Origin: Candidatus Moraniibacteriota bacterium
GTDB taxonomy: Bacteria; Patescibacteriota; Minisyncoccia; Moranbacterales; UBA1568
Reading direction: 5' to 3'
Length of the DNA: 59,529 nucleotides
Assembly (NCBI GenBank): GCA_037133435.1
Contig: JBAXOD010000006.1
Location: 1-59,529, forward strand
The notes beneath the pieces are model-generated. The model did not search any database. It was not told the DNA's origin and saw only the letters and a list, made by a program, of their open reading frames with translations. This document shows, piece by piece, positions 21,825 to 43,865 of this stretch (position 1 is the stretch's first letter; every line of letters begins with the position of its first letter). Both the position numbers and the translations under genes were made by a program.

Positions 21825-21928
21825 ATTCGGAGGTCTTGAGGTATTACAGGGGACAGGCTATCATGGGAAACGGAAAAGGGCAAGGGGCCCGGCGGAGCCG
21901 GGACATAATTTCGAATTTTGAAAGGGGA

Positions 21929-22053
21929 CCCGCCTACGCCAAACTACGGCGTGGCACAGCCCGCCTACGCCAAGCTACGGCGTGGCACAGCCCGCCTACG
22001 CCAAGTTACGGCGTGGCACAGTCCGCCTACACTGGAGTTATGGCGTGGCGAAG
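21929..22053 (+). repeat. tandem array of four 31-bp REP-like units
   Basis: CCCGCCTACGCCAA..TACGGCGTGGCACAG at 21929, 21960, 21991 and 22022; no spacers. Confidence 0.9.
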
Positions 22054-22079
22054 CGGGGAAGAAGGAAAATGGGTATTTG

Positions 22080-22206
22080 ATTCTCTTCTCAGGGTCTAAT
22101 ACCCCGCGGCTTGCCGCGGATAGGTCTCGCGAAGCGGGACTGGATCCCGGATCAAGTCCGGGACAAGTCAGGAGATACCTCGCGGCTTGCCGCGAGGAGT
22201 TTCATT
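22080..22206. mobile_element. non-autonomous two-hairpin element (IS200/IS605-end-like), copy 1
   Basis: near-identical to 50973-51102; hairpins CCGCGGCTTGCCGCGG and CCTCGCGGCTTGCCGCGAGG with a central CCCGGATCAAGTCCGGG palindrome. Confidence 0.55.
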
Positions 22207-22220
22207 GAAAGGGAAATATT

Positions 22221-22586
22221 ATGGGTGAACCGGAGAAACCATACGACCTTGAGGAGCGGACGGCACGATTCGGGGAATCAATCATACGGTTTTGCAGATC
22301 TCTTGGACAGGATGCTATCATGAAACCTCTCATTTCTCAGATCGTACGATCTGCGACGAGCGTCGGGGCGAACTATTGCGAGGCGAACGGAGCCAACTCA
22401 AAAAAAGATTTTCGGAATAAGATACATATCTGTAAAAAAGAGATCCAGGAAACGAAGCACTGGCCGCGAATGATTTCGACGGCGAGTCCCGAGAAAAGTG
22501 AAATCGCACGTGGCATTTGGAAGGAGGCCTAGGAATTGACGTTGATATTCGGGAAGATTCTTTCCAGCATGCGTGAATCCGAGTAA
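22221..22586 (+). pseudogene. four-helix-bundle (23S rRNA IVP/Avd-like) gene with in-frame TAG at 22530-22532
   Basis: YDLEERT..F, QIVRSATSVGANYCEA, SKKDF..KI.I..KE..ET; frame continues ELTLIFGKILSSMRESE-TAA past the TAG. Confidence 0.8.
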
Positions 22587-22641
22587 ACGTTATCCGTTTC
22601 AAAATTCGAAATTCGAAATTCAAAATTCAATATTCCGTATT

Positions 22642-23364
22642 ATGATCAATGAACTCGTGCTGGTGGGATTTTATTTCCTGACGCTGATCTATTCCGTGGT
22701 CATCCACGAGGTGTCGCACGGATGGATGGCGTGGTGGCTCGGGGACCTGACGGCCAAGTACGCCGGCAGGCTCGACCTGAACCCGATGAAGCATATCGAT
22801 CCGTTCGGGTCGATCATCGTGCCTATCGCGATGTTCTTGACGACCGGGTTCGCGTTCGGCTGGGCCAAGCCGGTGCCGTACAATCCGTACAACCTCCGCG
22901 ATCAGAAGTGGGGACCGGCGCTCGTCGCGATCGCGGGGCCGCTTTCTAATCTTACGCTCGCGCTTCTGGCGGTCACGGTGAGCCGGCTCTTGCCGTTGTC
23001 GCTTGCCGCGAAGGGGGAAGTCTTCTCGAAGTTTCTGGGTGTCTTGTCGGGGGCCGGGGGATTCTCGGACCGGTGGGGACTGTTCGCCTCCTCGCTTTCC
23101 GGATCGTTCCCGAAGATCTTCTTCGGGCTCATGCTGTTCGTCATTTTCTGGAACGTGTTGCTCGCGTTCTTCAACCTGATCCCGATCCCGCCACTCGACG
23201 GGTCCAAACTTCTCTATGCCACGTTCTCGCTCAAACAGGAGACTGTCATGTTTCTGGAGCGGTACGGGTTCTTCATCCTGCTCTTCGTGGTGTTCTTCCT
23301 CTCGACACCGGTCTCGATCGTGCTCAATACGGGGCTCAACTTCTTTTTCGGGCTGATGTTTTGA
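22642..23364 (+). CDS. site-2 protease (M50 family)
   Basis: HEVSH, LNP..HIDPFG, GWAKPVP, AGP.SN, FNLIPIPPLDG; ATG 22642. Confidence 0.92.
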   Translation: MINELVLVGFYFLTLIYSVVIHEVSHGWMAWWLGDLTAKYAGRLDLNPMKHIDPFGSIIVPIAMFLTTGFAFGWAKPVPYNPYNLRDQKWGPALVAIAGPLSNLTLALLAVTVSRLLPLSLAAKGEVFSKFLGVLSGAGGFSDRWGLFASSLSGSFPKIFFGLMLFVIFWNVLLAFFNLIPIPPLDGSKLLYATFSLKQETVMFLERYGFFILLFVVFFLSTPVSIVLNTGLNFFFGLMF

Positions 23365-23373
23365 CGAAGATTA

Positions 23374-23474
23374 AAAAGTCAAAAGTCCATCAGGTCTGTA
23401 AGGTCTGTAAGGTCGAAAATCCAGGGAAACAAACAACTGACAACATATCGCTGACAACGAAGAACCCGCCTACG
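23374..23474 (+). repeat. 9-mer (AAGGTCTGT-type) and heptamer arrays plus partial REP after the stop
   Basis: read directly. Confidence 0.8.
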
Positions 23475-23574
23475 CATTTTTGCTCTCATTTGACCGTTGT
23501 TGGCTTTCGGTATATAAGGGTAAGGATATATTTATTTAACAATCATAACCCAACTCAATTTTGAGGAGAAAAAG

Positions 23575-24231
23575 ATGAAAGGAACCGAAACCCCCGTAAA
23601 AGAAATCGTTTTCAGTCTGATGCCAATGAAGTCTAAGACTGAAGGGTCGAATGCTGTCGTTTTGACTGATAAAAAAAAGGATGTTGATACCGCGCGATGG
23701 TGCGACGTAGTCGAGGCGGCTCGCATATTACTTGCCGAAGACCAGACGTTCGTCGGCGTCCGCATTTTCGTTTTGGACGACCTGGGAGTTATCATGAAAG
23801 CCGTCGAGGGATTTCCGAACGGAAGGTTCAGGATCTGTTCGTCTTCGTCGGCACTGTTCCCGTATCACTATTCGACGGATATGGATCGGACCGAAGGCAT
23901 GAATTCCAGGTTTATCGATTTCGTGATGATCGCCCAAAAGAAAGTCCTGAACGAGGGGAAACGCGAATGCGGGTTTGTGGATCAGGACAAAGAAACCATA
24001 TCGATCGTGCCAAACAGTTTTTGGGAAACGGCCCTTCAACGTTTGGGTTCGTTCCAAAAAAGACAGGAAGAGGCGGGAATCAAATTCGATCGAATCGTCC
24101 TACTGACAGCAATCGATTCAGAAGAGATGATAAAAGACCTTCCGGATTTTCCTGTTGATGAGTTTTTCGATTTTTGCGTCTGTCGTCGATATATTTACTC
24201 TTCGCAAAACAGGGAAAAAGAAAAAAAGTGA
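23575..24231 (+). CDS. hypothetical protein
   Basis: 218-aa ORF with GAGGAG SD; no motif recognised. Confidence 0.6.
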   Translation: MKGTETPVKEIVFSLMPMKSKTEGSNAVVLTDKKKDVDTARWCDVVEAARILLAEDQTFVGVRIFVLDDLGVIMKAVEGFPNGRFRICSSSSALFPYHYSTDMDRTEGMNSRFIDFVMIAQKKVLNEGKRECGFVDQDKETISIVPNSFWETALQRLGSFQKRQEEAGIKFDRIVLLTAIDSEEMIKDLPDFPVDEFFDFCVCRRYIYSSQNREKEKK

Positions 24232-24379
24232 TCGGAATCCAGATCGTGTCCAAGGCAGTCATGCTTAATCGCATGGCTGCTGTTTTTTATCCGGTCCGGA
24301 TTGATAAGCAAGCATTCGCAGTGTACAAAAGGAGCACTTTCGTTCGCAGTTTCTTTAACAGTACAAACCCTGATACGCC

Positions 24380-24994
24380 ATGAGCCAGAAAAAAAATCTA
24401 CCGACATTCACCATTACCATAAAACGTGTCAAGGCGATTGAGCCGATTACCGGGAAAATAGTCACGAATGATTGGGACCAGGTTGTCGCTGCTGTGTGCC
24501 GCATGCTTCGGGATGACGCCTATTACAGTAATCCTGTAACGACATTCATAAAAGTCGTCTGCGACCGGGGAGAAACGTATGCCTCGAGCTTCTCCGGTCT
24601 TCGACGCACGTATTTTTCCGCCCTTCACAAAGAAAAAGGTCTGACGCTGAGACGGTTTTTCGGGAACGCTATCCGTATCGTCGTGCAAATGTATGATTGG
24701 GTAAATTGTCACTTCGCCGATATCGGAAGGGCACGGTTCCGTTGGTTTCCTCCGGATCGCGACAAATACTGGCTCGAAGTCAATCAACATGCCGCCGCGT
24801 TTCTTGTGCGGCAGAATACGAAATGGGAGAAAGGGATCAGCTACAGACCGGATAGAATCATCGTCATCTATCCTTTCAGTCGGTATGTTTTCGATTCCGT
24901 TTTCCCTGATATTCCGGCGGCAGGGTTTTCCGGTAAATCAACGGAAGAGAAACTTATCAAAGTGTTATTTTTGAGGCCATTGTATGCTGGATGA
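24380..24994 (+). CDS. hypothetical protein
   Basis: 204-aa ORF; shares a DRI(V/I) segment with the previous ORF, possibly a distant paralog. Confidence 0.55.
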   Translation: MSQKKNLPTFTITIKRVKAIEPITGKIVTNDWDQVVAAVCRMLRDDAYYSNPVTTFIKVVCDRGETYASSFSGLRRTYFSALHKEKGLTLRRFFGNAIRIVVQMYDWVNCHFADIGRARFRWFPPDRDKYWLEVNQHAAAFLVRQNTKWEKGISYRPDRIIVIYPFSRYVFDSVFPDIPAAGFSGKSTEEKLIKVLFLRPLYAG

Positions 24995-25342
24995 GCTTCT
25001 TGTAAGGAATGTATTACAGTCATCGATTCGGGATATCGGTGGCTGTTCTTTTTTTTCGAAAAGGTTTCTGCCACGAGATTTTTCGGAGCGTGTCATTACA
25101 TTTCGGGTCTGTTTGAAAAAGGCGAAAAGTCCGAAATTGAAAACACAGTACTATTTTGGCTTTCTTAAGGGACGAATTTTCGGCGAAATTCGATTATTTG
25201 CACATTTCGAATAATTAAGTGTGACGATTCATACTCTCCCACCCTTCACCTTCGAGGACTCAGAAGCTCCCCTCGAAAGCGGAGCAAGTCTCCCTTTTTG
25301 TTCCATGTTATCTGTTCCATGTCTACTGTTCCCTGACCCCGG

Positions 25343-25371
25343 TTGACAAGATTTCCGCTTTCCCCTACCAT
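25343..25371 (+). promoter_or_regulatory. str operon promoter
   Basis: TTGACA-17nt-TACCAT. Confidence 0.7.
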
Positions 25372-25415
25372 TCGATTACAGCGTTTCGCGCTTTTTCATT
25401 TTGTATCCCGAACGG

Positions 25416-25838
25416 ATGACCACCATCAACCAGCTGATCAAGCACCCGCGCAAGTCGACTTCCCGAAAATCGAAGTCGCCGGCGATGCAGTATCTCTCCA
25501 ATACGATCCACAATACCAAGACCTGGTCCAGTGGTCCGTTTAAGCGTGGCGTGTGCACCAAGGTGACGACCGTCACCCCGAAGAAACCGAACTCGGCACT
25601 CCGCAAGATTGCCCGTGTGCGCCTTTCCAACGGTATGGAAGTCTCGGCCTATATCCCGGGCGAGGGACACAATCTCCAGGAGCACTCGATCGTGATGATC
25701 CGTGGTGGCCGCGTGAAGGACCTTCCGGGCGTGCGCTACCACATCGTCCGCGGCGTGCTCGATACCGGAGGAGTCGCCAACCGGCGCCGGAGCCGCTCCA
25801 AGTACGGAGCCAAGCGCCCGAAGGCCGCGAAGGAATAA
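25416..25838 (+). CDS. rpsL: 30S ribosomal protein uS12
   Basis: [28 protein letters not shown]; ATG 25416. Confidence 0.98.
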
Positions 25839-25858
25839 TCCTCAACTAACGATTCTCA

Positions 25859-25950
25859 TAACTGACAACTGACAACTGACAACTGACAACATGGGGCCAT
25901 AGGGATGGATACTCCGCAGTTGTAAGTTATAAGTTGTAAGTCGTAAGTTG
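25859..25950. repeat. inverted heptamer arrays forming a 32-bp imperfect stem
   Basis: (AACTGAC)4 vs (GTAAGTT)4, 28-nt loop. Confidence 0.9.
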
Positions 25951-25958
25951 CGCAGCAT

Positions 25959-26426
25959 ATGCCCCGAAGAAAACGACAATACGGACGCCCGTGGAAGGCG
26001 GATGCGAAATACGACAGCCCGCTCGTGGGTCATTTTATCGGTCTCATCATGTGGGACGGCAAGAAGAACGCGGCCGAGAAGATCATCTATGACGCGTTCG
26101 ACATCATCCATGAGCGAACCAAGAAGGGCGGACTGAACGTTTTCGAACAGGCGATCAAGAACATTTCTCCGCTTTTGGAGCTCAAGAGCCGTCGCGTGGG
26201 AGGTGCGAACTATCAGGTGCCGATCCCGGTTTCCGGAGATCGCCGTCAGACACTCGCGATGCGCTGGATCCGCGAGGCCTGCCGCAAGCAGGGAGGGAAG
26301 CCGATGGCTGATCGGCTCGCGACCGAACTCATCGACGCTTCGAACCGTGCCGGCATGGCGATGAAGAAGCGCGAGGAAGTGCACCGCATGGCCGAGGCCA
26401 ACAAGGCGTTCGCGCATTTCGCTTAG
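25959..26426 (+). CDS. rpsG: 30S ribosomal protein uS7
   Basis: SRRVGGANYQVP, HRMAEANKAFAH. Confidence 0.98.
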   Translation: MPRRKRQYGRPWKADAKYDSPLVGHFIGLIMWDGKKNAAEKIIYDAFDIIHERTKKGGLNVFEQAIKNISPLLELKSRRVGGANYQVPIPVSGDRRQTLAMRWIREACRKQGGKPMADRLATELIDASNRAGMAMKKREEVHRMAEANKAFAHFA

Positions 26427-26441
26427 AAGAATTCAAAGCAT

Positions 26442-26528
26442 GTTAACGTGTTAACGGGTTAACGGGTTGTTTTCTTCGGGACAACCTGTTTGTTTTTCGG
26501 TAACGCGTGAACGCGTGAACCCGTGAAC
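26442..26528. repeat. inverted octamer arrays with internal cUUCGg hairpin
   Basis: (GTTAACGG)3 vs (GCGTGAAC)3. Confidence 0.85.
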
Positions 26529-26566
26529 CGAATAATTTTTCATAAGATTTCAGTAAGAAAAAAATT

Positions 26567-28681
26567 ATGGCCCGTCTCAAGCCTATCGATCATATCCGCA
26601 ATATCGGCATCATCGCGCACATCGACGCGGGGAAGACCACCACGACCGAACGCGTGCTTTTCTATACCGGCATCACGCACAAGATCGGCGAGGTGCACGA
26701 GGGCGAGGCAACCATGGACTGGATGGAACAGGAACGCGAACGCGGCATCACCATCACTTCGGCCGCGACGACGTGCTTTTGGAAAGATCATCAGATCAAT
26801 ATCATCGATACCCCCGGGCACGTGGACTTCACTGTGGAAGTGGAGCGATCTTTGCGCGTCCTCGATGGCGGTGTCGTCGTGTTCGACGGCAAGGAAGGCG
26901 TGGAACCGCAGTCCGAGACCGTGTGGCGTCAGGCGGAAAAGTACAAGGTGCCGCGCATGTGTTTCATCAACAAGATCGACAAAGAGGGTGCCGACTTCGA
27001 GGTCGCGCTCGCTTCCATTTGGAACCGGTTGACCCCGAACGCGTTCGCGATGCAGATCCCGATGGGGGAGCGCGGTGATTTCTACGGTGTCGTCGACCTC
27101 CTTACCATGAAAGGATACACGTTCGATGGTCCGATGGGAGAGATCGTGATCGAAGGGGAGATCCCGGCGGAGCTCGTCGAGAAGGCCAAGACATGGCGCG
27201 AGAAGCTCGTGGAGAAGGTCGCCGAGACCGACGATACGCTGACCGAAAAATTCCTCGGGGGCGAGGAGATCTCCGTCGCCGAGCTCAAGGCGGCGATCCG
27301 CCGCGGTGTCATCGCGACGAAGCTTATTCCGGTCTTCACCGGGACGGCGCTTCGCAATAAGGGCGTACAACTTGTGCTCGACGCGGTCGTGGACTATCTG
27401 CCGTCGCCTTCGGACGTGCCGCCGATGGTCGGGGAAGACGTGAAGACCGGTGCGCCGATGACGCGCAAGCCGAGCGATGAGGAGCCGTTCTCGGCACTCG
27501 CGTTCAAGATCGCGACCGATCCCTTTATCGGACAGCTCACCTTCTTCCGCGTCTACTCGGGAAGCCTGAAGGCGGGCAGCTACATACTCAACTCGTCCAA
27601 GGACGGCAAGGAACGCGTCGGCCGCATCGTCCGCATGCATGCGAGCCATCGCGAAGAGGTGGAGGACATCTCTGCCGGCGATATCGGCGCGCTTGTCGGC
27701 ATGAAGATGACGACGACCGGCGATACGCTGTGCGATCCGGAACACCCGATACTGCTCGAATCCATCACGTTCCCGGAGCCGGTCATCGACATCGCGATCG
27801 AACCGAAGACCAAGGCCGACCAGGAGAAGATGGGCGTCGCGCTCAAGAAGCTCGCCGAGGAGGATCCGACCTTCCGCGTCCATACCGACGAGGATTCCGG
27901 GCAGACCATCCTTTCGGGCATGGGTGAACTGCACCTCGACATCATCATCGACCGCATGAAGCGCGAGTTCAAGGTGGAAGTGAACGTGGGCCGGCCGCAG
28001 GTGGCGTACCGCGAGACGATCCGTCAGACCGCGCAGGCCGAAGGGAAATACGTCCGCCAGTCCGGCGGTCGCGGACAGTACGGCCATTGCTGGCTGCGCG
28101 TGGAACCGCGTGAACCGGGCGCGGGGTACGAGTTCGACAACGAGATCAAGGGCGGTCTCATCCCGAACGAATTCATCAAGCCGATCGATCGCGGCGTACA
28201 GGGGGCGATGGAGACCGGCGTGGTCGCCGGATACCCGATGGTCGACATCAAGGTCGTCGTGTACGACGGATCCTATCACGATGTGGACTCCTCGGAGGCC
28301 GCGTTCAAGATCGCCGGTTCGCTCGCGTTCAAGGAAGCGACCCGCCGCGCCAAGCCGGTGCTGCTCGAACCGATCATGAACGTCGTCGTCATTTCGCCGG
28401 AACAGTTCATGGGCGACGTGGTGGGCGACATCAACTCCAAGCGCGGTATCATCAAGGAGATGCAGGACCGCGGCGAGGGGAACGCCCGGGTGAAGGAGAT
28501 CCATGCCGATGTGCCGCTCGCGTCCATGTTCGGCTATGCGACCTCGCTTCGCTCCATGTCTCAGGGCCGCGCCAGCTATTCGATGGAATTCGGCCAGTAC
28601 GCGGAGGCCCCGTCGAACGTGCAGGCGGCGATCATCGAGAGCCGGCAGGGGGTGGTGAAGTCGGCCGCGGTGGAGGAATAA
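26567..28681 (+). CDS. fusA: elongation factor G
   Basis: [30 protein letters not shown]. Confidence 0.98.
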
Positions 28682-28702
28682 GGGGAGCAGAGAAGGTTCT
28701 CC

Positions 28703-28731
28703 TTGACAGGGGGAAATTTTATTGGTACGAT
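28703..28731 (+). promoter_or_regulatory. internal promoter for tuf/S10
   Basis: TTGACA-17nt-TACGAT with extended -10 TG. Confidence 0.75.
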
Positions 28732-28887
28732 TCCCATTGATGTTCTCATCCTGGAATGTTTCGGTATTTCGATATCGAAAAGGCCGCGGAAAAGGACTTT
28801 CATCATCGAAGAAAAAAGATAATAATTCATTTCACTCGATTGCGGCAGCGAGGGGGTGTCCCATCGTGGTTGCGGTCCGTACGCGTT

Positions 28888-30081
28888 ATGGCAGTAGAAC
28901 AGTTTCAGCGGAACAAATTGCACGTCAACGTGGGCACCATCGGCCACGTTGACCACGGAAAGACCACCCTCACGGCGGCCATCCTGAACGTGCTTTCGTA
29001 CAAGGGATTCGCGAAGAAGAAGAACATCGACGATATCGACAAGGCGCCGGAAGAGAAGGAGCGCGGTATCACGATCGCGACCGCCCATTGCGAATACGAG
29101 TCCGATACCCGTCACTACGCGCACGTCGACTGCCCGGGGCATGCCGACTATATCAAGAACATGATTACGGGCGCCGCCCAGATGGACGGAGCGATTCTCG
29201 TGGTGTCCGCGACCGACGGCCCGATGCCGCAGACCCGCGAACACATCCTCTTGGCGCGCCAGGTTGGCGTGCCGGAAGTCGTCGTCTTTCTGAACAAGGT
29301 GGACATGGTGGATGATCCGGAACTCGTCGACCTCGTGGAGGCGGAAGTCCGTGAACTGCTCACGAAATACGAATTCGACGGCGACGGCGCCTCGGTCATC
29401 CGCGGTTCGGCCCTGAAGGCGCTTGAGGCGACGTCCCTCGAGGACGAGGCGACGAAACCAGTGCTCGATCTTATCGCGGCGCTTGACGTCAAGATCCCGG
29501 ATCCGGTCCGCGACATCGACAAGCCGTTCCTCATGCCGATCGAAGACATCTTCTCGATCGAAGGACGCGGAACGGTCGTCACGGGACGCATCGAGCGCGG
29601 TATCGTCAATATCAACGAGGAAGTCGAGATCATCGGCCTCAAGGATACGGCGAAGACCGTCGTGACCGGCATCGAGATGTTTAACAAGAACCTCGACAAG
29701 GGCCAGGCCGGAGACAACGCCGGACTCCTCATCCGCGGTATCAAGAAGGAAGACGTCGAGCGCGGTCAGGTGCTCGCGAAGCCGGGTTCGATCACACCGC
29801 ACACTGAGTTCGAGGGACAGATCTACATCCTCACCAAGGAGGAAGGCGGCCGTCATACCCCGTTCTTCAAGGGATATAAGCCACAGTTCTACATCCGCAC
29901 CACGGACGTGACCGGAGAGGTGGAGCTTCCGGAGGGGACCGAAATGGTCATGCCGGGCGACACCGTCACGCTCAAGATCAAGCTTATCGCCCCGGTGGCC
30001 ATGGAAGAGGGTATGCGCTTCGCGATCCGCGAGGGTGGTCGGACGGTCGGCGCCGGAGCCACGACGAAGATCATCAAATAA
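28888..30081 (+). CDS. tuf: elongation factor Tu
   Basis: [21 protein letters not shown]; ATG 28888. Confidence 0.98.
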
Positions 30082-30170
30082 GCTTTTCAGGGAACCGAGC
30101 GGGTGGAACCGATTCCACCCGCGATCGTTCCCGGAAACGGCGACACGTACGTAAGTCTTTTGCAACGGAA

Positions 30171-30500: not shown

Positions 30501-30587
30501 TAAGATCGGCAGGTTTTGAACAATACGATACTCGTTAAAGTCCGATTCCCGTGTATTTCGCGGGCGTTGCGAATGGGTCAAGGATGG

Positions 30588-35284: not shown

Positions 35285-35293
35285 TGCACCACT

Positions 35294-35488: not shown

Positions 35489-35493
35489 CGACT

Positions 35494-35799
35494 ATGAACG
35501 CCGTCAAGAAGACAACCAAGAAGACCGTCGTGGCAGAAAAGGAGCCCGTCGCGAACGTCTCGAAAGCGCCGACTTTGCGTGGGACCGTGACCAGCGCGGC
35601 GACCGCGCAGACGATCACCGTCGAGGTGAAGACGCTCAAGACGCATCCGAAGTACGGGAAGAAGTACCGTTCGTCCAAGAAGTATCTCGTGCACGCCCCG
35701 GAAGGGAAGTATGCGGTCGGGGACGCGGTGACCTTCCGCGAGTGCCGTCCGGTCAGCAAACGGAAGCGGCATATGGTGGTCGGCAATGATGGCCGGTAA
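35494..35799 (+). CDS. rpsQ: 30S ribosomal protein uS17
   Basis: [15 protein letters not shown]. Confidence 0.95.
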
Positions 35800-35822
35800 A
35801 TTATCCGAAACGGAGATATCCT

Positions 35823-36191
35823 ATGATCCAGGCAGAAACAAGATTGCGTGTTGCGGACAACAGCGGGGCGAAAGTCATCGAGTGCTTCAAGGTGCTCGGC
35901 GGGACCCGTCGGCGCTATGCCCAGATCGGCGATGTCATCGTGGCGTCGGTGAAGTCGGCAGAGCCGAGAGGCGCCGTGAAGAAGGGTGACAAGGTGAAGG
36001 CAGTGATCGTCCGACAGGCAAAGGAGTTTCGACGTAAGGACAATTCCTATATCCGTTTCGACGAGAACGCCGCCGTGATCATGGATGCGGACGTGAAGGA
36101 ACCCCGCGGGACCAGAATTTTCGGCCCGGTGGCCCGTGAACTCCGCGAGAAGTACGCCAAGATCGTGTCGCTCGCGCAGGAAGTGCTCTAG
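35823..36191 (+). CDS. rplN: 50S ribosomal protein uL14
   Basis: [26 protein letters not shown]. Confidence 0.98.
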
Positions 36192-36201
36192 CTAACCAGT
36201 A

Positions 36202-36280
36202 AACTGACAACTGACAACCGACAACTTTCCGCAAGCGATGACGAATGCTTGTTGCAGGTTGCAGGTTGTAAGTTGTGAGT
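36202..36280. repeat. inverted heptamer arrays between rplN and rplX
   Basis: (AACYGAC)3 vs GTTGCAG/GTTGTAA units; inner CAAGC..GCTTG stem. Confidence 0.85.
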
Positions 36281-36291
36281 CGAAAGAGATT

Positions 36292-36600
36292 ATGAAACTC
36301 AGGAAAGGAGACGAAGTGGAAGTGATCGCCGGAAAGGACCGCGGAAAGCGCGGGAAGGTGCTTCGCATTCTTCCGACGGAAGGCAAGATCGTCGTCGACG
36401 GCGTGAACGTCATGAAGAAGCATCAGAAGGCGCAGGGTGGCAGCGCGAAGGGGCAGCGGATCGAGATGTCGTTCCCGATCGACGCGTCCAACGCGATGCT
36501 CGTGTGTCCCGATACCGGAAAGCCGACACGCATCGGGTACGCGATCGAAGGTGACGAGAAGGTCCGCGTGAGCCGACGGTCCGGAAAGACGATACGCTAA
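36292..36600 (+). CDS. rplX: 50S ribosomal protein uL24
   Basis: KGDEV.VIAGKDRGKRG, GVN..KKH; ATG 36292. Confidence 0.97.
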   Translation: MKLRKGDEVEVIAGKDRGKRGKVLRILPTEGKIVVDGVNVMKKHQKAQGGSAKGQRIEMSFPIDASNAMLVCPDTGKPTRIGYAIEGDEKVRVSRRSGKTIR

Positions 36601-36630
36601 CGAATCATACGCATACAAGCGTTTACGGAT

Positions 36631-37182
36631 ATGAAGAAGAATCAGCCGATCATGAAAGCGAAATATGAGGCCATCCTCCCGGAGCTGAAAAAGGCTCTCG
36701 GCGTGGAGAACGTGCTCGCGTTGCCGCGCATCGAGAAAGTGACGGTGAACGTCGGCATCGGCAAGTTCCTCAAGGAGCAGGCCCGCGTCGACGAGATCGT
36801 CGCGTCGCTCGTTTCGATCACCGGTCAGAAGCCGGTCCTGACGAAGGCCCGCAAGGCTATCGCCGGATTCAAGATCCGCGAAGGGCTCGAGGTCGGGGCG
36901 AAAGTGACGCTTCGTGGCCGCCGCATGTGGCAGTTCCTCGACCGTGTCATCTATGCGACCATTCCCCGAACCCGCGATTTCCAAGGCATCCCGAAGACCG
37001 CGATCGGCCGTGACGGCAACTGCAATATCGGACTCCGCGAGCACCTGATTTTCCCCGAGATCGTCCCCGAGAAAGTGCAGACGCCGTTCGGACTGCAGGT
37101 GGTGATCACGACGAGTGCCGGTGACGAGAAAGCCGGACGCGAACTGTTCCGTCTCCTCGGATTCCCGATCCGCACCGAATAA
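36631..37182 (+). CDS. rplE: 50S ribosomal protein uL5
   Basis: ITGQKP, GAKVTLRG, PRTRDFQG. Confidence 0.97.
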   Translation: MKKNQPIMKAKYEAILPELKKALGVENVLALPRIEKVTVNVGIGKFLKEQARVDEIVASLVSITGQKPVLTKARKAIAGFKIREGLEVGAKVTLRGRRMWQFLDRVIYATIPRTRDFQGIPKTAIGRDGNCNIGLREHLIFPEIVPEKVQTPFGLQVVITTSAGDEKAGRELFRLLGFPIRTE

Positions 37183-37211
37183 GTAAGCACGAAACGTAAA
37201 CGAATCCACTT

Positions 37212-37397
37212 ATGGCGAAGACTTCCGTAATTGCAAGGGCAAAGAAACATCCGAAATTCTCGACCCGCATCGTGCGGAGATGTTGGAAGTGCGGCCGGAA
37301 GCACGGGTATCTGAGGAAATTCGACCTCTGCCGTATCTGTTTCCGGGAACTCGCGATGAAGGGGGAGATCCCGGGAATCAGGAAGTCCTCGTGGTAA
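37212..37397 (+). CDS. rpsN: 30S ribosomal protein uS14, zinc-binding short type
   Basis: [15 protein letters not shown]. Confidence 0.97.
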
Positions 37398-37473
37398 TCG
37401 GAAACGATTTCCAAGTCCGGGCCATGGGTTACGGTTCGGAAACGGGAAGTCGAATATATATAAGATTTAGACT

Positions 37474-37884
37474 ATGTTAGACCCAATTGCAGACATGTTG
37501 ACCAGGATCCGGAACGCGCAGCGCGCGGGACATGCGACCGTCCTCGTTCCGTCCTCGAAACTGAAGTTCGCGATCGCCGAGACCCTTCTCGCGCGCGGGT
37601 TCATCACGGGCGTCGAGAAGAAGCGCGACGAGACCGGGAAGAAGGAATCGATCGAGGTCACGCTCCGATATGTCGAGAAGTCGCTCCTGCGTCACGAACC
37701 GGCCATCCGCGAGATCAAGCGTATCAGCAAGGAGGGTCGCCGCGTCTATCTGAAGAAGGGCGAGGTGCACAAGGTGAAGAACGGATACGGACTCGCGATC
37801 GTCTCCACGTCGAAGGGAGTGATGAGCGGCGAGGAAGCCTACAAGAAGGGGCTCGGTGGCGAATACATCTGCGAGGTCTGGTAA
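37474..37884 (+). CDS. rpsH: 30S ribosomal protein uS8
   Basis: DPIADMLTRIRNA, STSKGVM, GGE. Confidence 0.98.
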   Translation: MLDPIADMLTRIRNAQRAGHATVLVPSSKLKFAIAETLLARGFITGVEKKRDETGKKESIEVTLRYVEKSLLRHEPAIREIKRISKEGRRVYLKKGEVHKVKNGYGLAIVSTSKGVMSGEEAYKKGLGGEYICEVW

Positions 37885-37976
37885 GAGAATAGTCCGTACC
37901 GTCAGCGTCGAAAATCCATACTGTCGAAAGAAACGATCATCGGAGACGCGAAGATAATGAAGCTAATGAAGCCGTT

Positions 37977-38513
37977 ATGAGTCGAATAGGAAAACTGACC
38001 ATCACCGTTCCCGCAGGCGTCGAAGCGTCGATTTCGGCGAACGTCGTCACGGTGAAGGGGCCCAAGGGGACGCTCACGTTCCCGCACCATACGGACGTGA
38101 AGGTCGTGCTCGAGGACAAGACACTGTCCGTCGTGAAGCTCGGCGAGTCCAAGCGCGCGAACGCGATCTGGGGAACCACCTCGAAACTGCTTTCGAACAT
38201 GGTCGAGGGAGTCGTGAAGGGATTCGAGAAGCAGATCGAACTCAATGGCGTCGGTTATCGTATGGCGGTCTCGGGCAAGAAGCTTGACCTGGCGCTCGGG
38301 TTTTCGCATCCGGTTTCCGTACCGCTGCCCGATGGCATCGAGGCGAAGATCGAGAAGAACGTACTCACCATCAACGGGATAGACCGACAGAAGGTCGGGC
38401 AGTTCGCGGCCAATATCCGCGGTCTGAAACCGGTCGAGCCGTACAAGGGCAAGGGATTCCGCTACGTCGGCGAGATCGTCCGCAGGAAGGAAGGAAAGAA
38501 GGCATCCGCCTAG
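37977..38513 (+). CDS. rplF: 50S ribosomal protein uL6
   Basis: MSRIGK, GVGYR, EPYKGKG. Confidence 0.98.
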   Translation: MSRIGKLTITVPAGVEASISANVVTVKGPKGTLTFPHHTDVKVVLEDKTLSVVKLGESKRANAIWGTTSKLLSNMVEGVVKGFEKQIELNGVGYRMAVSGKKLDLALGFSHPVSVPLPDGIEAKIEKNVLTINGIDRQKVGQFAANIRGLKPVEPYKGKGFRYVGEIVRRKEGKKASA

Positions 38514-38534
38514 ATTTGATTTAACGAGAGCACT

Positions 38535-38891
38535 ATGTCACGGATCATCGAACGCAAAATTCAACGGAAAGCCCGCGCACGTCGCGTCCGGGCGAAGGTG
38601 TCCGGCACGGCCGAGCGGCCGCGGCTTTCGGTATTCCGGAGCCTGAGAAATTTTTCCGCGCAGGCGATCGACGATCAGGCGGGAACAACGCTCGTCTCGG
38701 TGGACCTCCGCGAACTCGGCAAGAAGGCCACGAATACCGTCGACGGCATCCGCGCTTTGGGCGTTTCGCTCGGCGAGAAGTGCCTGGCCTCGGGGATCAA
38801 GACGGTCACGTTCGATCGCGCCGGATACCGGTATCACGGGAAAGTGAAGGCGTTCGCGGAAGGCGCGCGCGAGGCCGGACTCGAATTCTAA
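38535..38891 (+). CDS. rplR: 50S ribosomal protein uL18
   Basis: RPRLSVFRS, FDRAGYRYHGKV. Confidence 0.97.
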   Translation: MSRIIERKIQRKARARRVRAKVSGTAERPRLSVFRSLRNFSAQAIDDQAGTTLVSVDLRELGKKATNTVDGIRALGVSLGEKCLASGIKTVTFDRAGYRYHGKVKAFAEGAREAGLEF

Positions 38892-38915
38892 ACGTATCCG
38901 TCACAATATCATCGT

Positions 38916-39512
38916 ATGGAACAGAACGACAAGCAAAAGAAGCGCAAGCGCATGGGCGGACGCCGTGAAAAACCGGAGTACGACCAGAAGATGCTCGACC
39001 TCGCCCGCGTGACCCGCGTCGTGAAGGGCGGTCGGCGTTTCCGGTTCCGCGCGACGTTGGTCATCGGCAATCGCAAGGGACGCGTCGGCGTGGGAGTCGG
39101 CAAGGGCAGCGATGTCTCGGACGCGATCCAGAAGGCGTATAACGATGCGAAGAAAAACCTCGTCGACGTGACACTGCATCATGGAACGATCGCCTACGAC
39201 GTCTCGTCGAAAGAGGGAAGCGCGAAGGTGCTCCTCAAGCCCGCACGCGAGGGACGGGGACTCATCGCCGGTGGTGCTATCCGGGCCGTGGCGGACCTCG
39301 TCGGTATCAAGGACATCGTCTCGAAGTCGCTCGGTTCCTCGAACGCACTCAACCTTTCCCGTGCCACGATCAAGGCGCTCAAGAGTTTCGAGGGAGGCGT
39401 CGTCGAGCCCATCCGGCACGAAAAGAAGGCACCGGCAAAAGAGGTGAAAGAGGTCAAAGAAGTGAAGGAAGTCAAAGTGAAAGCGGCCGTTGCCCCGAAA
39501 GAAGCGAAATAA
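38916..39512 (+). CDS. rpsE: 30S ribosomal protein uS5 with KEV-repeat tail
   Basis: RVTRVVKGGRRF, GLIAGG. Confidence 0.97.
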   Translation: MEQNDKQKKRKRMGGRREKPEYDQKMLDLARVTRVVKGGRRFRFRATLVIGNRKGRVGVGVGKGSDVSDAIQKAYNDAKKNLVDVTLHHGTIAYDVSSKEGSAKVLLKPAREGRGLIAGGAIRAVADLVGIKDIVSKSLGSSNALNLSRATIKALKSFEGGVVEPIRHEKKAPAKEVKEVKEVKEVKVKAAVAPKEAK

Positions 39513-39523
39513 CGCGAATCATT

Positions 39524-39961
39524 ATGCAGATCCACAGCCTTATCGCACCGAAAAGACCCGGCAAGAAGCGCGTCGGTCGCGGCGGTCGCCGCGGCAAGAC
39601 CGCCGGACGCGGAACGAAGGGACAGAAGTCCCGATCCGGCGCGACCATCGACCCGCTCTTTGAAGGAGGACGTTCTTCGCTTATCGATCGTCTGAAAAAG
39701 GTCCGCGGGTTCAAGTCACCGCATACGAAGCGCGCGACCATCTCGCTCTCGTTCCTCGAACGGCATTTCGAGGCCGGTGAGACCGTGAGCCGCGAGGCGC
39801 TGATCGGCAAGAAACTCTATTCGCCGAAGCAGCTCGAGACCGGTATCAAGATCGTCGCTTCCGGTACGATTTCCAAAAAACTCGTTTTCGATTCGAAGGC
39901 CCGTTTTTCCGAGGCCGCGCAGAAAGCCATCGAGCAGGCCGGCGGAACGATCGCGGAATAG
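39524..39961 (+). CDS. rplO: 50S ribosomal protein uL15
   Basis: RVGRG..GKTAGRGTKGQKSRSG, FEGG. Confidence 0.97.
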   Translation: MQIHSLIAPKRPGKKRVGRGGRRGKTAGRGTKGQKSRSGATIDPLFEGGRSSLIDRLKKVRGFKSPHTKRATISLSFLERHFEAGETVSREALIGKKLYSPKQLETGIKIVASGTISKKLVFDSKARFSEAAQKAIEQAGGTIAE

Positions 39962-40043
39962 TTCCCGTTCTCCCGTATCCTCTTCCTTCGTCTTTTTCCC
40001 GATATCCTGGTATGATGGAGCGTGTAATCCGTTTCGCGGTCCC

Positions 40044-41315
40044 ATGCTGAAAGCATTTCGACAGATTTTCTCCGTGCCGGAACTCCGTGGCAAGATACTC
40101 TTCATCCTCGGGGTTTTGGTCGTATACCGTTTCGCCGCCAACATTCCCATGCCGGGAGTGGATGTTTTGGCACTTCAGAACCTTTTCTCACAGAACGATA
40201 TCCTGTCGCTCCTCAACGTGTTCTCCGGCGGCGGGCTCAAGGGCGTCTCTATCGTGCTCCTCGGCGTCGCGCCGTACATCTCCGCCTCGATCATCATCCA
40301 GCTTCTGACGATGGCCGTGCCGGCGCTCGAACGATACCAGAAGGAAGAGGGCGAGGCCGGACGACGGAAATTTTCCATGTGGACCCGGTGGCTCACCATA
40401 CCGCTCGCGGCCGTCCAGGCGTTCGGCATGATCACGCTCCTGCGCTCGCAGGGCGTTATCGCGGACCTCACCCCGATCCTGTTCGCATCCATGATACTGA
40501 CCGCCGTCGCGGGAACCATTTTCCTCATGTGGCTCGGGGAGCTCATCACGGAAAAAGGTCTCGGCAACGGCATCTCGCTTCTCATTTTCGCGGGTATCGT
40601 CGCGGGGATGCCGGCGGGCGCTTCCCGTTTCATTTCGACCTGGGATTCCACGCAAATCTTTTCCTACATCCTGTTCCTCGCCGTGGCGCTCATCATCATC
40701 GTGGGTGTCGTCTTCGTGAACGACGGGCAGCGTATCATCCCGATTTCCTACGCGAAGCGCCTGCACGGCGCGAAGGTCTACGGCGGCGCGTCCACACATT
40801 TGCCGCTTCGCGTGAACCAGGCCGGCGTCATCCCGATCATCTTCGCCGTGTCCATCATCGTCATCCCGAGGATGGCGGCGACGTATTTCGCGCAGGCGAA
40901 CATGGGCAAGGTCTCCGACATAGCGGTCTCGGTGAACGTGTTCCTGCAGAATCCGTGGATCTATTCCGGACTCTATTTCCTGCTGGTCGTCGTCTTCACG
41001 TATTTCTATACCGCCGTCATCTTCGATCCGTTCAAGATCGCGGAGAACCTGCAGAAGCAGGGCGGCTTCATACCGGGCATCCGACCGGGAACCGCCACCG
41101 CCGAATATCTCGGCAAGATCATCAACCGCATCACGCTTTCCGGGGCAGTGTTTCTCGGGCTTATCGCCGTGCTGCCGAATATCCTGCAGACCATGACGAA
41201 CATCCAGTCGCTCACCCTGGGCGGCGTCTCGATCCTGATCACGGTGTCCGTCGTCATCGAGCTCATGAAGCACGTCGAGGGACAGCTTTCCATGCGGAAC
41301 TACGAGGGATTCTAA
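40044..41315 (+). CDS. secY: preprotein translocase SecY
   Basis: PYISASII.QL, GLGNGISL, AGVIPIIFA, GGFIPGIRPG. Confidence 0.98.
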   Translation: MLKAFRQIFSVPELRGKILFILGVLVVYRFAANIPMPGVDVLALQNLFSQNDILSLLNVFSGGGLKGVSIVLLGVAPYISASIIIQLLTMAVPALERYQKEEGEAGRRKFSMWTRWLTIPLAAVQAFGMITLLRSQGVIADLTPILFASMILTAVAGTIFLMWLGELITEKGLGNGISLLIFAGIVAGMPAGASRFISTWDSTQIFSYILFLAVALIIIVGVVFVNDGQRIIPISYAKRLHGAKVYGGASTHLPLRVNQAGVIPIIFAVSIIVIPRMAATYFAQANMGKVSDIAVSVNVFLQNPWIYSGLYFLLVVVFTYFYTAVIFDPFKIAENLQKQGGFIPGIRPGTATAEYLGKIINRITLSGAVFLGLIAVLPNILQTMTNIQSLTLGGVSILITVSVVIELMKHVEGQLSMRNYEGF

Positions 41316-41316
41316 G

Positions 41317-41613
41317 AAGTCCATACAGTTGAAAGTCCGTAAGGTCCATACAGTCGGGAACGGACGCGTGGAAGGAGAGGGAATTTCGAATGTTGAAACG
41401 GGAGAGGGGGTAGGAATCGTATCCGACTCGATAGGCATTCGTCTGCTTCTCGTTTTCTTTTGTACATTGTGAATCGATCATTGGAAATCGTTTCCGATTT
41501 TATTGACTTGTGACCCCGTAAAATCGTGAGGACGTGATCACGGGGCATGCTTTACACACTTTTGACTCGTTAACTTTCGACTTTATAGACTTTATAGACT
41601 TTATGGACTTGAC
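41317..41613. repeat. inverted 9-mer arrays bracketing the secY-adk spacer
   Basis: AAGTCCATA-type units 41317-41355 vs (GACTTTATA)n ~41579-41610. Confidence 0.8.
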
Positions 41614-42277
41614 AGACTCCAAGCCGGACGCTTATATCCTCCTCGGTCCTCCGGGAAGCGGGAAGAGCACGCAGGCCGACCTCTTCGGCCGGAAATTCGG
41701 CACGGTCCACGTGGACATGGGCGCATCACTTCGTGCGGCGGCGGGCGAGGCGACGCCTTTCGGTGAGGCCTTGTCCGAAATCATCAACAAGAAGCGTGAG
41801 TTGGTTCCCGACGGTATCGTCCGTTCGATCCTCGAAAATGACTTGCATACCATCGATCCGACCCGATCGGTCGTCATCGATGGCGCCCCTCGACGGGAAA
41901 GTCAGATACATCCGGTTCTTTCGGCCATTTCCGGTTCAGGCCGGACGTTCCGGAAGGCTATCCTCGTCGATCTGTCCGAGGAGGAATCGATCGCGCGCAT
42001 CTCGAAGCGGTTCTCGTGCGTGTCGTGCGGTCGGAAGCTCATCCTGGGAAACGATCTTTCATCCGAATCCGCCCCGTGTCCGTCCTGCGGAGGGTCGGTC
42101 ACGCGCCGTGCGGACGATACGGAAGAAGGGGTCCGCAAACGGTACCGCATTTTCCTGGAAGAGACGTCACCGGTGATCGCGTATTTCGAGGATCGGGGCG
42201 AGCTGTTGCGTGTGACCGGCGGAAAAACGGCCGAAGAGATATTCACAGAAATCGAAATCGATCTTGGAAATGTATGA
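41603..42277 (+). CDS. adk: adenylate kinase (Zn-lid type)
   Basis: GPPGSGKSTQA, LVPD, DGAPR, CxxC..CxxC lid, RADD; ATG 41603. Confidence 0.92.
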   Translation: MDLTDSKPDAYILLGPPGSGKSTQADLFGRKFGTVHVDMGASLRAAAGEATPFGEALSEIINKKRELVPDGIVRSILENDLHTIDPTRSVVIDGAPRRESQIHPVLSAISGSGRTFRKAILVDLSEEESIARISKRFSCVSCGRKLILGNDLSSESAPCPSCGGSVTRRADDTEEGVRKRYRIFLEETSPVIAYFEDRGELLRVTGGKTAEEIFTEIEIDLGNV

Positions 42278-43047
42278 ATGAATTCATCAAAACCGAAGCG
42301 GAACTCGGTAATCTCAGGGAATCGGGAGCACGGCTCGCGGTCGTCATGGAAGAGCTTCTCTCGATGGCGGCGCCCGGCGTCTCGACGCTTGCCATCGGCG
42401 ATCAGGCCGATCTCCTGATCCGCAAACAGGGCGGCATTCCGATCTTCAAGGGGTACGGTGCCGAATGGGGGAAACCGTTTCCGGCAGCGGTCTGCGTGTC
42501 GCTCAACGACGAGGTGGTGCACGGGATCCCATCCTCGAAGCGCATTCTTCGCGAGGGCGATCTTCTGAAGCTCGATCTGGGACTGCTGTTTCAGGGAATG
42601 GTCTCGGATATGGCCCGTACCAAGGCGATCGGGACGGTGTCCGACGAGGCGGCCCGGCTGCTTTCCGTCACCCGAGAATCGCTTGATCGCGGGATCGCCA
42701 AGGTGCGATCCGGTGCGCGATTGTCGGACTTCGCGGGTGCGGTGGAGCGGACCGCCAAACACGCGGGATTTTCGGTCGTGCGTGATCTGGTGGGCCATGG
42801 TGTCGGTCGCGAACTGCACGAGGAACCGCAGATCCCGAATTATTTCGAAAAAGGCATGCATGATTTCTCATTCCGCAAGGGGATGACGGTCGCGCTCGAA
42901 CCGATGGTGAACGTCGGCGGGCCCGATATCCGTCTCGCGTCGGACGGGTGGACCTATCTCACGAAAGACGGGAAATTGTCTGCACATTTCGAGGACACGG
43001 TCATCGTGACGGAACGGGGGACGGAGATCGTGACGAGACTGAAATAG
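42274..43047 (+). CDS. map: methionine aminopeptidase type I
   Basis: CVSLNDEVVHGIP, GHGVG..LHEEP, EPM, SAHFEDT. Confidence 0.96.
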   Translation: MNEFIKTEAELGNLRESGARLAVVMEELLSMAAPGVSTLAIGDQADLLIRKQGGIPIFKGYGAEWGKPFPAAVCVSLNDEVVHGIPSSKRILREGDLLKLDLGLLFQGMVSDMARTKAIGTVSDEAARLLSVTRESLDRGIAKVRSGARLSDFAGAVERTAKHAGFSVVRDLVGHGVGRELHEEPQIPNYFEKGMHDFSFRKGMTVALEPMVNVGGPDIRLASDGWTYLTKDGKLSAHFEDTVIVTERGTEIVTRLK

Positions 43048-43326
43048 TCACAAGTCCTTAAAGTCAATAAAGTTCATAATGTCAAAAAGAATTTCGAATT
43101 TAGAATTTTGAAACGGGAACAGGGAGCGAATTATAGGGAACTGGATTGTCACGGATGTTTACATCATTGCAAGGACGGACGGGAAACCGGCCTGAGCCAA
43201 GGCTCCGGCATGATGAAGCAGGGAACTACTCCCACCCCTCACCCGCGCGGAGCCACGGGAGCTCCCCTCAGACAGGGGAGCAGGCGGGCTCCCTTGCTCT
43301 CTGTTGACTGTTATCTGATATCTGAT
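43047..43326. repeat. composite spacer: forward 9-mer and AATTT arrays, palindromes, reverse ATAACAG-type array before yqgF
   Basis: read directly. Confidence 0.75.
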
Positions 43327-43752
43327 ATGGATAAAAACTTTCTCGGGCTGGATTGGGGTGCGGCCAAGATCGGCGTCGCGTTCGCCGACGCGGAGACGCG
43401 GATGGCGTTTTCGGTCTGTGTACTGAAGAACGACAGCACCCTCTTTTCGCGCTTGGAAGAGCTGTTTTCAGAGCGGGAAATCGGCACGGTCGTGATCGGT
43501 ATCGCGTCGCACGTGAATCGTCAGGAAGTGGTTTCGGGAGGAAAAAAACTCGGTGAAGCGATACTGAAAAATTACCCCTCGGTACGTGTCGAATATCAAG
43601 ACGAGATGTTCACGACGAAGATGGCCTCGGCGAATCTCCGCGAGCACGGCATCAGGAATCTCGCCCGCTTCGACGACCAGGAATCCGCCCGCATCATCTT
43701 GCAGGAGTGGTTGGACAGGAATCAGATAACAGGGAAAACAGATAACAGATAA
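43327..43752 (+). CDS. yqgF: YqgF/RuvX RNase H-fold nuclease
   Basis: LGLDWG..KIGVA, DEMFTT, DDQESARIILQ; ATG 43327. Confidence 0.9.
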   Translation: MDKNFLGLDWGAAKIGVAFADAETRMAFSVCVLKNDSTLFSRLEELFSEREIGTVVIGIASHVNRQEVVSGGKKLGEAILKNYPSVRVEYQDEMFTTKMASANLREHGIRNLARFDDQESARIILQEWLDRNQITGKTDNR

Positions 43753-43865
43753 CAGAGAGCATGGAACAGGGACGAGCGAGCAGATAACATGAGCTCTCGT
43801 CAACTCACAACTGACGACATACAACTGACAATTGGGAACAGGAAGAGCGGATCGTAGCGGTCGCA

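Follow-up and report, generated by a model that had tools for sequence, protein, structure and literature searches.

Inverted short-repeat arrays in a Moraniibacteriota genome as candidate arms of foldback elements related to rRNA intervening sequences

Spacers between core genes of Candidatus Moraniibacteriota bacterium contain convergent pairs of short tandem-repeat arrays, which are described here for a contig of 59,529 bp (C6, JBAXOD010000006.1; hereafter the window) from a genome (G000) of 1.24 Mb that comprises 41 contigs and is rated 100% complete. With moderate confidence, the arrays are interpreted as the arms of foldback, hairpin-forming insertion elements resembling the intervening sequences (IVSs) of rRNA, the two arms of an element being convergent tandem arrays of a degenerate 7–9 nt unit. 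A complete element would carry a PF05635 gene in its loop, the same unit that is found in 23S rRNA IVSs; the window's candidate for such a four-helix-bundle (4HB) element is located at 21907–22635, in the 5′ leader of an M50 protease gene. The gene-less array pairs that separate ribosomal protein genes, like the single arrays bordering larger variable segments, would be relatives of this 4HB element without an open reading frame (ORF), and the solo arrays may derive from, or depend on, 4HB elements. This class of element is favoured because it accounts most simply for arrays in spacers, leaders, rRNA and a protein loop together with the PF05635 genes. Direct observation extends to the anatomy, the strict convergent order of the arrays, their turnover among congeners, their presence in 16S rRNA and leuS, and the bracketing of PF05635 genes across phyla. 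Heptamer arrays and IVSs with an S23p ORF are each already known, and their connection, read here from sequence, appears to be new as far as the literature found extends. A literature search short on subscription journals and supplements returned no paper linking PF05635 genes to inverted heptamer arrays and none on such arrays in genomes of the candidate phyla radiation (CPR), the small-genome uncultured bacteria to which this organism belongs.

The putative complete element is positioned between a promoter-like site of the M50 protease gene and its start codon. This site (21836–21864, + strand, as are all window features given below unless noted) reads TTGAGG-17-TATCAT, scores 9/12 in a consensus scan, and lies in a stretch kept in the congeners G001, G002 and G008. 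The left, forward arm (21907–21921) consists of two units only, AATTTCG AATTTTG, and is followed by 3.3 tandem copies of a 31-nt GC-rich unit (21929–22030) identified by Tandem Repeats Finder (TRF); this unit recurs in spacers, with 37 fuzzy matches genome-wide against 0 in the shuffled genome. The gene in the loop (22221–22532) belongs to PF05635 (Pfam E=1.5e-13) and TIGR02436 (NCBIfam E=1.7e-18), and its family match continues beyond an in-frame TAG (one TAG inside the match), by which the ORF is shortened. The right, reverse arm (22598–22635) is (CRAAATT)x5 and ends 7 nt before the M50 ATG. The first-pass annotation of this DNA had claimed an inverted pair enclosing a 4HB gene; the arms and the family match bear this out, but the gene is a shortened one, and since its upstream neighbour is rpmB on the minus strand, the spacer is divergent, which corrects the earlier account. 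The arrangement agrees with the anatomy given for IVSs in the accessible part of PMC4990558, namely a 28-bp terminal-inverted-repeat stem, an S23p ORF in the loop and cleavage by RNase III; the same text states that IVSs have long been suspected to be selfish or mobile by a mechanism that is not known. As far as those descriptions extend, the 23S IVSs with an S23p/PF05635 ORF in Coxiella, Leptospira and others share with the elements described here a size of a few hundred nt, an inverted-repeat stem, a 4HB ORF in the loop, sites at rRNA helix tips and sporadic presence among relatives. They differ in that the window copy is in an mRNA leader rather than in rRNA, that the rRNA copies of this genome are in 16S and lack an ORF, that the arms here are tandem heptamer arrays, and that the element is known here from sequence and not from excision. 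RNase III is encoded in the genome, in keeping with an IVS-like element, and a transcribed hairpin would be removed or tolerated as in IVSs.

Four spacers of the window contain an inverted pair of one family and no gene, as the first-pass annotation had reported. The rpsL–rpsG module (25860–25950) is composed of four exact AACTGAC units after the rpsL stop, a 30-nt loop and (GTAAGTT-type)x4, the right arm ending 9 nt before the rpsG ATG, with a predicted RNA fold of -32.3 kcal/mol (z -2.4). The rpsG–fusA module (26442–26528) has (GTTAACGR)x3 on the left and a reverse octamer array on the right of a terminator-like central hairpin that includes a T-run (26461–26490; fold z of the module -2.1). 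The rplN–rplX module (36202–36281) contains an AACTGAC array, a conserved central hairpin and a reverse array, and folds at -36.1 kcal/mol (z -5.4), a strength that supports hairpin formation. The secY–adk spacer (41316–41618) carries a forward 9-mer array (41316–41350), a short AATTTCG array (41382–41395) and a reverse 9-mer array (41579–41618). The fifth base of the AACTNAC family is free, with forward units having TG, TT, TC or TA at positions 4–5 and the reverse units mirroring them. The predicted stems are 6-bp blocks with single mismatches between. TRF places short arrays at every position where they had been noted, at 22598–22635, 25299–25332, 25860–25890, 25918–25950, 26442–26468, 26502–26528, 36202–36226, 36251–36268, 41579–41618, 43059–43112, 43308–43328, 43723–43756 and 43801–43831, and they are plain from a reading of the letters. 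Reverse arrays had been said to occur solely upstream of seven core genes; these account for 7/9 in the window, the other two being weak two-unit matches within coding sequence.

A finder built on the six families returned 324 arrays in the genome against 22 after mononucleotide shuffling, an excess of repeats beyond chance that fits the description of prokaryotic long simple sequence repeats (SSRs) with units of 5–11 nt. Most are intergenic (237/324), with 87/324 located in ORFs of the crude gene caller written for this analysis, and each array was scored against the nearest called gene. TRF gave 902 rows genome-wide, with 135 of the 189 rows of period 7 and 55 of the 95 of period 8 being mostly outside called genes, as are 7 of 58 rows of period 6 and 7 of 91 of period 12. 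The proposed polarity, with forward arrays after stop codons and reverse arrays before starts, holds for all arrays (3′-forward 124, 3′-reverse 30, 5′-forward 20, 5′-reverse 63; odds ratio 13, p=2e-17) and for confident genes within 60 nt (81, 7, 3 and 44 respectively; odds ratio 170, p=2e-24). Adjacent arrays no more than 150 nt apart (109 pairs) comprise 55 forward-forward, 28 reverse-reverse, 26 forward-reverse and 0 reverse-forward pairs, and 18/26 of the convergent pairs are of a single family; this strict order supports the foldback interpretation. A forward-loop-reverse unit reads alike on both strands, so the stop/start rule equals forward-left and reverse-right in every spacer, and because the rule is then equivalent to left and right arm order, it alone shows no tie to gene direction.

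Arrays also enclose PF05635 genes elsewhere. The genome encodes six PF05635 copies, 3/6 of which are enclosed by arrays of the same family, and a fourth (C3:51994–52290) is seen by eye between AAAAATG-type arms. Of 31 related genomes, 27 encode PF05635. Bracketing was scored by the flanking inverted pair, which had to beat all 30 shuffles; 17/25 analysable PF05635 loci of the relatives did so, 12/25 with the stricter score of at least 28, and three more were not analysable. A profile of seven copies retrieved 80 loci in named genomes (bacteria and one archaeon), and 46/76 analysable ORFs are bracketed by inverted arms of mostly period 7 (32/50 outside the CPR and 14/26 inside). The bracketed loci belong to Firmicutes, Bacteroidota, Planctomycetota, Verrucomicrobiota, Proteobacteria, Acidobacteriota, Actinomycetota, Desulfobacterota, Fibrobacter and CPR lineages. 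Control windows shifted by one gene length gave 0/76 and 0/71 (0/147), against 44/73 at the real position, which argues for PF05635 genes as occupants of array loops. The heptamer flanking a 4HB gene can also be a dispersed heptamer of its genome, again as expected if solo arrays and 4HB elements are related: AGTGGTT exhibits 341 matches in a Fibrobacter record with one 4HB gene, 45 in a Pirellulaceae record where 4/4 close pairs are plus-then-minus, and 13 in a Ruminococcus record, all at the 4HB locus. As a separate observation, the consensus heptamer of the period-7 left arms flanking PF05635 genes (L119–L198) includes TAG in 19/35 cases, roughly (TAGNNNN)n.

Arrays are present within the 16S rRNA gene and within leuS, and both locations support an insertion element. 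The 16S rRNA gene (C8:34396–36086; L088 1501–3191) is 1691 nt in length, with 110 nt inserted at a place that spans 6 in the Rfam model, and contains two AACTNAC hairpins (L088 1597–1668 and 2738–2806) that carry no ORF and fold strongly (z -6.6 and -8.1). The first site measures 138 nt and has AACTGAC arms in two genomes, G000 and G004; its length is 20 nt in four others (G001, G005, G006 and G007). The second site has AACTNAC arms in G000 as well as G007. G001, G005 and G006 use three other heptad families there, and G008 has no such arms. The leuS gene (C3:48915–51926; L045/L046) has 1003 codons and contains AACTNAC and ATAACAG arrays with a GC-rich hairpin unit, all in frame. The arrays are read as LTTDN-type repeats that differ in copy number among G000, G001, G004, G005 and G007 and are absent in G002, G003, G008 and the order-level relative G019. 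Elements of the proposed kind would persist where a long imperfect hairpin is harmless, that is, in intercistronic spacers, leaders, variable rRNA helix tips and permissive in-frame protein loops. None of the six array families is present in the 23S rRNA of this genome. That gene (C31:3574–7141) exceeds the Rfam model by about 1 kb over positions 15–2044 and runs off the contig end. Entire additional domains are found in leuS of congeners: G008 has one that is NUDIX-like, and G002, G004 and G008 each have an insert of about 120 residues. The open frames range from 1005 to 1266 codons.

The same spacers were mapped in eight congeners (G001–G008), where they are empty, array-only or gene-filled, as had been predicted. 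The M50–rpsL spacer is 94–97 nt in G001, G007 and G008, is array-only in G003 (417 nt), and contains genes in G002 (1092 nt), G006 (1235 nt) and the window (2051 nt), the inserted genes being different. Long alleles have forward arrays from the M50 stop and reverse arrays up to the conserved rpsL promoter, and the three short alleles have little beyond that promoter and no arrays. In the window, the left edge of the variable segment is marked by forward arrays immediately past the M50 stop (23375–23460), one of an AAGTCYATA-type 9-mer, whose family the closest relative, G002, also has at this place, and one of AACTNAC; the right edge is marked by a reverse ATAACAG-type array (25298–25332), in agreement with the claim that arrays of different families flank two orphan genes here. 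The rpsL promoter-like site (25343–25371) follows just past the reverse array and is conserved in all seven congeners read. Neither orphan ORF (23575–24231 and 24380–24994) has a Pfam family or a homologue in G001, G007 or G008; the second exhibits homology to ORFs in G004 (66% identity) and G006 (28%). The 4HB element of the M50 leader is present in the window's genome alone among 6 genomes with a readable spacer, and the rplB–rpsS AACTNAC module in 4/8 genomes. Five genomes have an rplN–rplX module of one family, and in three (G001, G006 and G007) a module of the AGCTTCNNN-type replaces it. Among congeners, the rpsL–rpsG spacer ranges over 28–134 nt, secY–adk over 15–303 nt and map–yqgF over 13–279 nt. 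In 30 relatives drawn from the genus, the family and the order, inverted arms in the rpsL–rpsG and rpsG–fusA spacers are built of short repeats particular to the lineage, other spacers are short and bare, and small ORFs are found between arrays in the rpsG–fusA spacer of the more distant L021, L030, L017 and L015. In the class's other orders, most spacers at the 28 loci covered are tiny, and modules judged by eye are present in at least seven (L091, L099, L100, L105, L106, L107 and L115). Presence, absence and family swaps at orthologous spacers favour insertion elements. Because such elements would be gained, lost, resized and replaced quickly, array-bearing spacers would be the places where length and gene content vary between species.

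The first-pass annotation had proposed that the inverted pairs are landing pads whose loops gain and lose genes. Content does vary at array-bearing spacers; since the three short M50–rpsL alleles lack arrays, however, arrays are not standing landing pads there, and inserts and arrays come and go together. A gene-capture platform, in which inverted pairs are recombination sites and loop cassettes are exchanged as at integron attC/attI or between shared arrays, is accordingly unlikely. It would account for the differently filled spacers with arrays at both edges, and arrays of 14–50 nt common to many loci could serve short-homology exchange. It would also suit the accessory island (3430–12533), a co-oriented set of defence-type genes. 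It comprises four AAA_14+DUF4143 ATPase genes as well as AbiEi/AbiEii pairs, and every gene is followed by the same composite of forward-only arrays and GC-rich hairpin units and then by its own TTGACA-type promoter-like region. Integron cassette arrays resemble this island in their co-oriented small accessory or toxin-antitoxin genes with an imperfect palindromic repeat after each, but the repeats here adjoin no integrase, the genes have promoter-like sites of their own, and core-gene spacers, rRNA and a protein contain the repeats as well. The window contains no integrase or transposase, and the genome has 0 matches to the Y1 transposase/RAYT family (PF01797) and one tyrosine recombinase (PF00589), on contig C2. 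No attC architecture was recognised, though no attC model was run. TTGACA promoter-like regions precede the island genes and the first orphan ORF, and terminator-like hairpins follow both orphan ORFs. The 4HB copies are diverged, old and syntenic across congeners, and in 16S rRNA and leuS nothing is captured by the arrays. An integron-like platform is not supported, and the arrays probably mark variable spots rather than a dedicated gene-capture machine.

Public runs were available as low-depth assembled contigs from DNA and RNA libraries, not raw reads, and gave no transcript ends, circles, empty sites or junction signal in support of capture. Contigs of RNA libraries cover 23793–24143 and 25402–25889, a DNA contig of another sample spans 41276–41716 with no differences, and another DNA contig stops at 25298, where an array starts. 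Two joints, 22613->41578 and 22000->22076, resemble cross-talk among copies of the repeats. In one DNA run, a joint at 25887->25861 within the AACTGAC array is as expected of a copy-number variant and would suit a quite different explanation, that the arrays are a by-product of replication slippage, being ordinary long SSRs of 7–9 nt that grow under weak selection and have no identity as elements. Copy numbers vary between congeners, and heptanucleotide repeats have been given as the commonest long SSR class in prokaryotes, with slippage proposed (Mrazek 2007, via the accessible text of PMC4679880). We nevertheless consider slippage improbable, as it explains neither why pairing is strictly convergent (26 vs 0) nor why hundreds of loci reuse the same units, nor the specific enclosure of PF05635 genes by arrays in many phyla, nor the replacement of one family by another at a single rRNA helix tip.

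The median distance from the end of a reverse array to the start codon is 11 nt (n=61; mode 6–9 nt), and that from a stop codon to the beginning of a forward array is 22 nt (n=116). This spacing could instead indicate cis-acting punctuation by the host, in which the arrays insulate or terminate after genes, form a structured initiation region before genes that lacks a Shine-Dalgarno motif and is opened when an upstream ribosome terminates, or are operators for an oligomeric protein that binds nucleic acid. The starts that were read lack obvious Shine-Dalgarno motifs despite CCUCC in the 16S tail, the unit is a conserved core with one free position, and L106, L099 and L105, from the class's other orders, have AACTNAC, GTTAACG or AGCTTC units too. 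A translational role has been proposed for the TAACTGA repeats of Beggiatoaceae in the accessible part of PMC4679880. Such a role for the host is nonetheless doubtful: modules are dispensable at every orthologous spacer examined, they are also present in rRNA and within a protein, and no binding protein was identified. Nor are stop codons enriched on the sense strand; as a candidate all-frame stop-codon source the arrays were rejected, having more stops per nt in sense than in antisense at 62 arrays and fewer at 48 (p=0.16), with few sense-strand stops in the reverse arrays of two families. A role of the reverse arrays as an alternative Shine-Dalgarno partner was also rejected, the 16S 3′ tail being the ordinary CACCUCCUU. 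The regions upstream of ribosomal protein genes at 25380–25416, 25950–25958 and 26529–26566 have no recognisable Shine-Dalgarno motif, though 16S ends in the usual CCUCC.

Several results weigh against the foldback interpretation. No mobilising enzyme was identified for the elements. Forward arrays are in excess on the leading strand as assigned by GC skew (169 vs 68), and the accessory island at 3.4–12.5 kb has runs of forward arrays without a reverse partner; neither follows from the foldback interpretation. G008 has arrays and no PF05635 match, and the identity of 4HB proteins co-varies weakly with the similarity of their heptamers (rho -0.08, permutation p=0.096, n=35). The loops of all 18 gene-less modules compared are different, so whole modules are not copied in the manner of a miniature inverted-repeat transposable element (MITE). 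Watson-Crick identity between AACTNAC arms is 0.776 within the same module (n=19) and 0.828 between different modules (n=14); as the two arms of a module match no better than mixed arms, stem pairing is not visibly maintained. Mismatches in the arms around 4HB genes comprise 42 of the sense-wobble type, 57 of the antisense-wobble type and 148 transversions, with no sense-strand G-U signature, and the modules of this genome fold better in sense than in antisense in 11 cases vs 8, which is no difference. An RNA-level role is therefore not shown outside rRNA. Stems specific to the RNA strand were rejected for want of a clear signal in these counts and in the ribosomal-operon spacers of nine genomes, where the corresponding 51 vs 27 concerns orthologous spacers and includes known leaders.

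Short dispersed palindromic elements with a conserved full-length consensus are known from bacterial spacers, among them the Rickettsia palindromic elements (RPEs), the repetitive extragenic palindromes and their mosaics (REP/BIME), and the Correia elements. RPEs also insert in frame in protein genes and in RNA genes, and Correia elements are cut by RNase III once transcribed. The in-frame insertion in leuS is a likeness to the MITE/REP/RPE group; the difference is that the arm units alone are shared here, the loops being unique, and that no RAYT or Y1 transposase is present. No target duplications were seen. The foldback (FB) transposons of Drosophila have long inverted arms of short tandem subrepeats and a loop that is empty or gene-bearing; they are eukaryotic and of kilobase scale, and transposase-bearing members are known. 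The cyanobacterial short tandemly repeated repetitive (STRR) sequences, the TAACTGA repeats and the GGGAATC repeats, as far as described, resemble the arrays in their 7-nt units of 2 to about 10 copies, intergenic location near gene ends and hundreds of occurrences per genome, and TAACTGA is a rotation of AACTGAT, a unit in the AACTNAC arrays of this genome. Heptamer arrays are described for cyanobacteria, Beggiatoaceae and Bacteroidetes in the available portion of PMC4679880, and for Xanthomonas, that of PMC4692102 reports 70–75 convergent GGGAATC pairs per genome, in unusually stable regions. The arrays described here differ from known heptamer repeats in the coexistence of several families with periods of 7, 8 and 9. 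The TAACTGA repeats, where described, are mostly forward just upstream of starts, whereas the reverse form is upstream here. Neither source, in its accessible text, connects the repeats with PF05635 genes, with inserts in rRNA or with in-frame inserts in proteins.

A broader proposal, which we put forward tentatively, is that PF05635 proteins and heptamer arrays are one pan-bacterial two-part system, in which an oligomeric protein would bind the arrays around its own gene and up to hundreds elsewhere, driving their spread or controlling the fate of the hairpin. The two solved relatives, 2GSC (XCC0516 of Xanthomonas campestris) and 2RLD, were each deposited with five chains. If this were true, 23S IVSs, cyanobacterial STRR, Beggiatoa TAACTGA, Xanthomonas GGGAATC and the CPR array grammar would be facets of one undescribed kind of element, and the forward-then-reverse order would follow from the way arms are made, for example by templated repeat addition to both 3′ ends of a break. 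Heptamer arrays and ORF-bearing rRNA IVSs have each been unexplained for more than 25 years and treated as separate curiosities. Both meet in this genome, where hairpins armed with the same arrays flank a gene of the IVS type, are interspersed in essential operons, and add length to 16S helices and to an aminoacyl-tRNA synthetase, and the function of IVS proteins and heptamer repeats becomes a testable question in culturable bacteria. For the annotation of small uncultured genomes the arrays are also a warning, being a source of broken assemblies, spurious ORFs and inflated lengths of rRNAs and proteins.

The remaining arrays of the window are in the map–yqgF spacer (43052–43328), with a forward 9-mer and AATTTYG on the left and a reverse ATAACAG-type array abutting the yqgF ATG on the right, and after yqgF, where an accessory island opens with forward ATAACAG and AACTNAC arrays (43723–43831), as the first-pass annotation had stated. 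Beyond these arrays, a segment of about 170 nt is present in two copies (43840–44400), each closing with a terminator-like hairpin (CCGCTCAAAAGGCGGG and a T-run), and is followed by a RhuM-family gene (44510–45598) and a RadC-like gene (45881–46537). The defence-type row at 1072–12282 encodes in order AbiEii, AbiEi/AbiEii, two AAA_14+DUF4143, AbiEi/AbiEii and two more AAA_14+DUF4143 proteins, with a GC content of 40–50% compared with 55–60% in the ribosomal block. The contig start (1–193) contains a 72-nt tandem repeat of 2.7 copies with 92% matches. Searches of the window with Rfam and ARAGORN found no RNA family and no tRNA. The GC-rich unit of 31–32 nt (CCCGCC...GGCGTGGC) is found in tandem beside heptamer arrays, usually after a GGGAAC motif, at 5483–5551, 7322–7586, 12468–12533, 21929–22030 and 50428–50532; its orientation equals that of the neighbouring gene in 31/37 fuzzy matches, and similar CCCGCC...GGCGGG hairpins are present in spacers of distant relatives. 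No PF13366 (GxxExxY) match is present in the genome. The accessory protein Avd of diversity-generating retroelements (DGRs) was rejected as an identity for the window 4HB gene, since the only reverse transcriptase gene (C3:62142–62747) is not beside it; the window copy does not match NF033474 (DivGenRetAVD), and two other 4HB copies score 29–36 bits against a cut-off of 80. A DGR is located at C3:58494–62750, with an 892-codon target gene, an Avd-like ORF (61554–61829, minus strand) and this reverse transcriptase gene, which the gene caller overlooked, calling antisense ORFs there.

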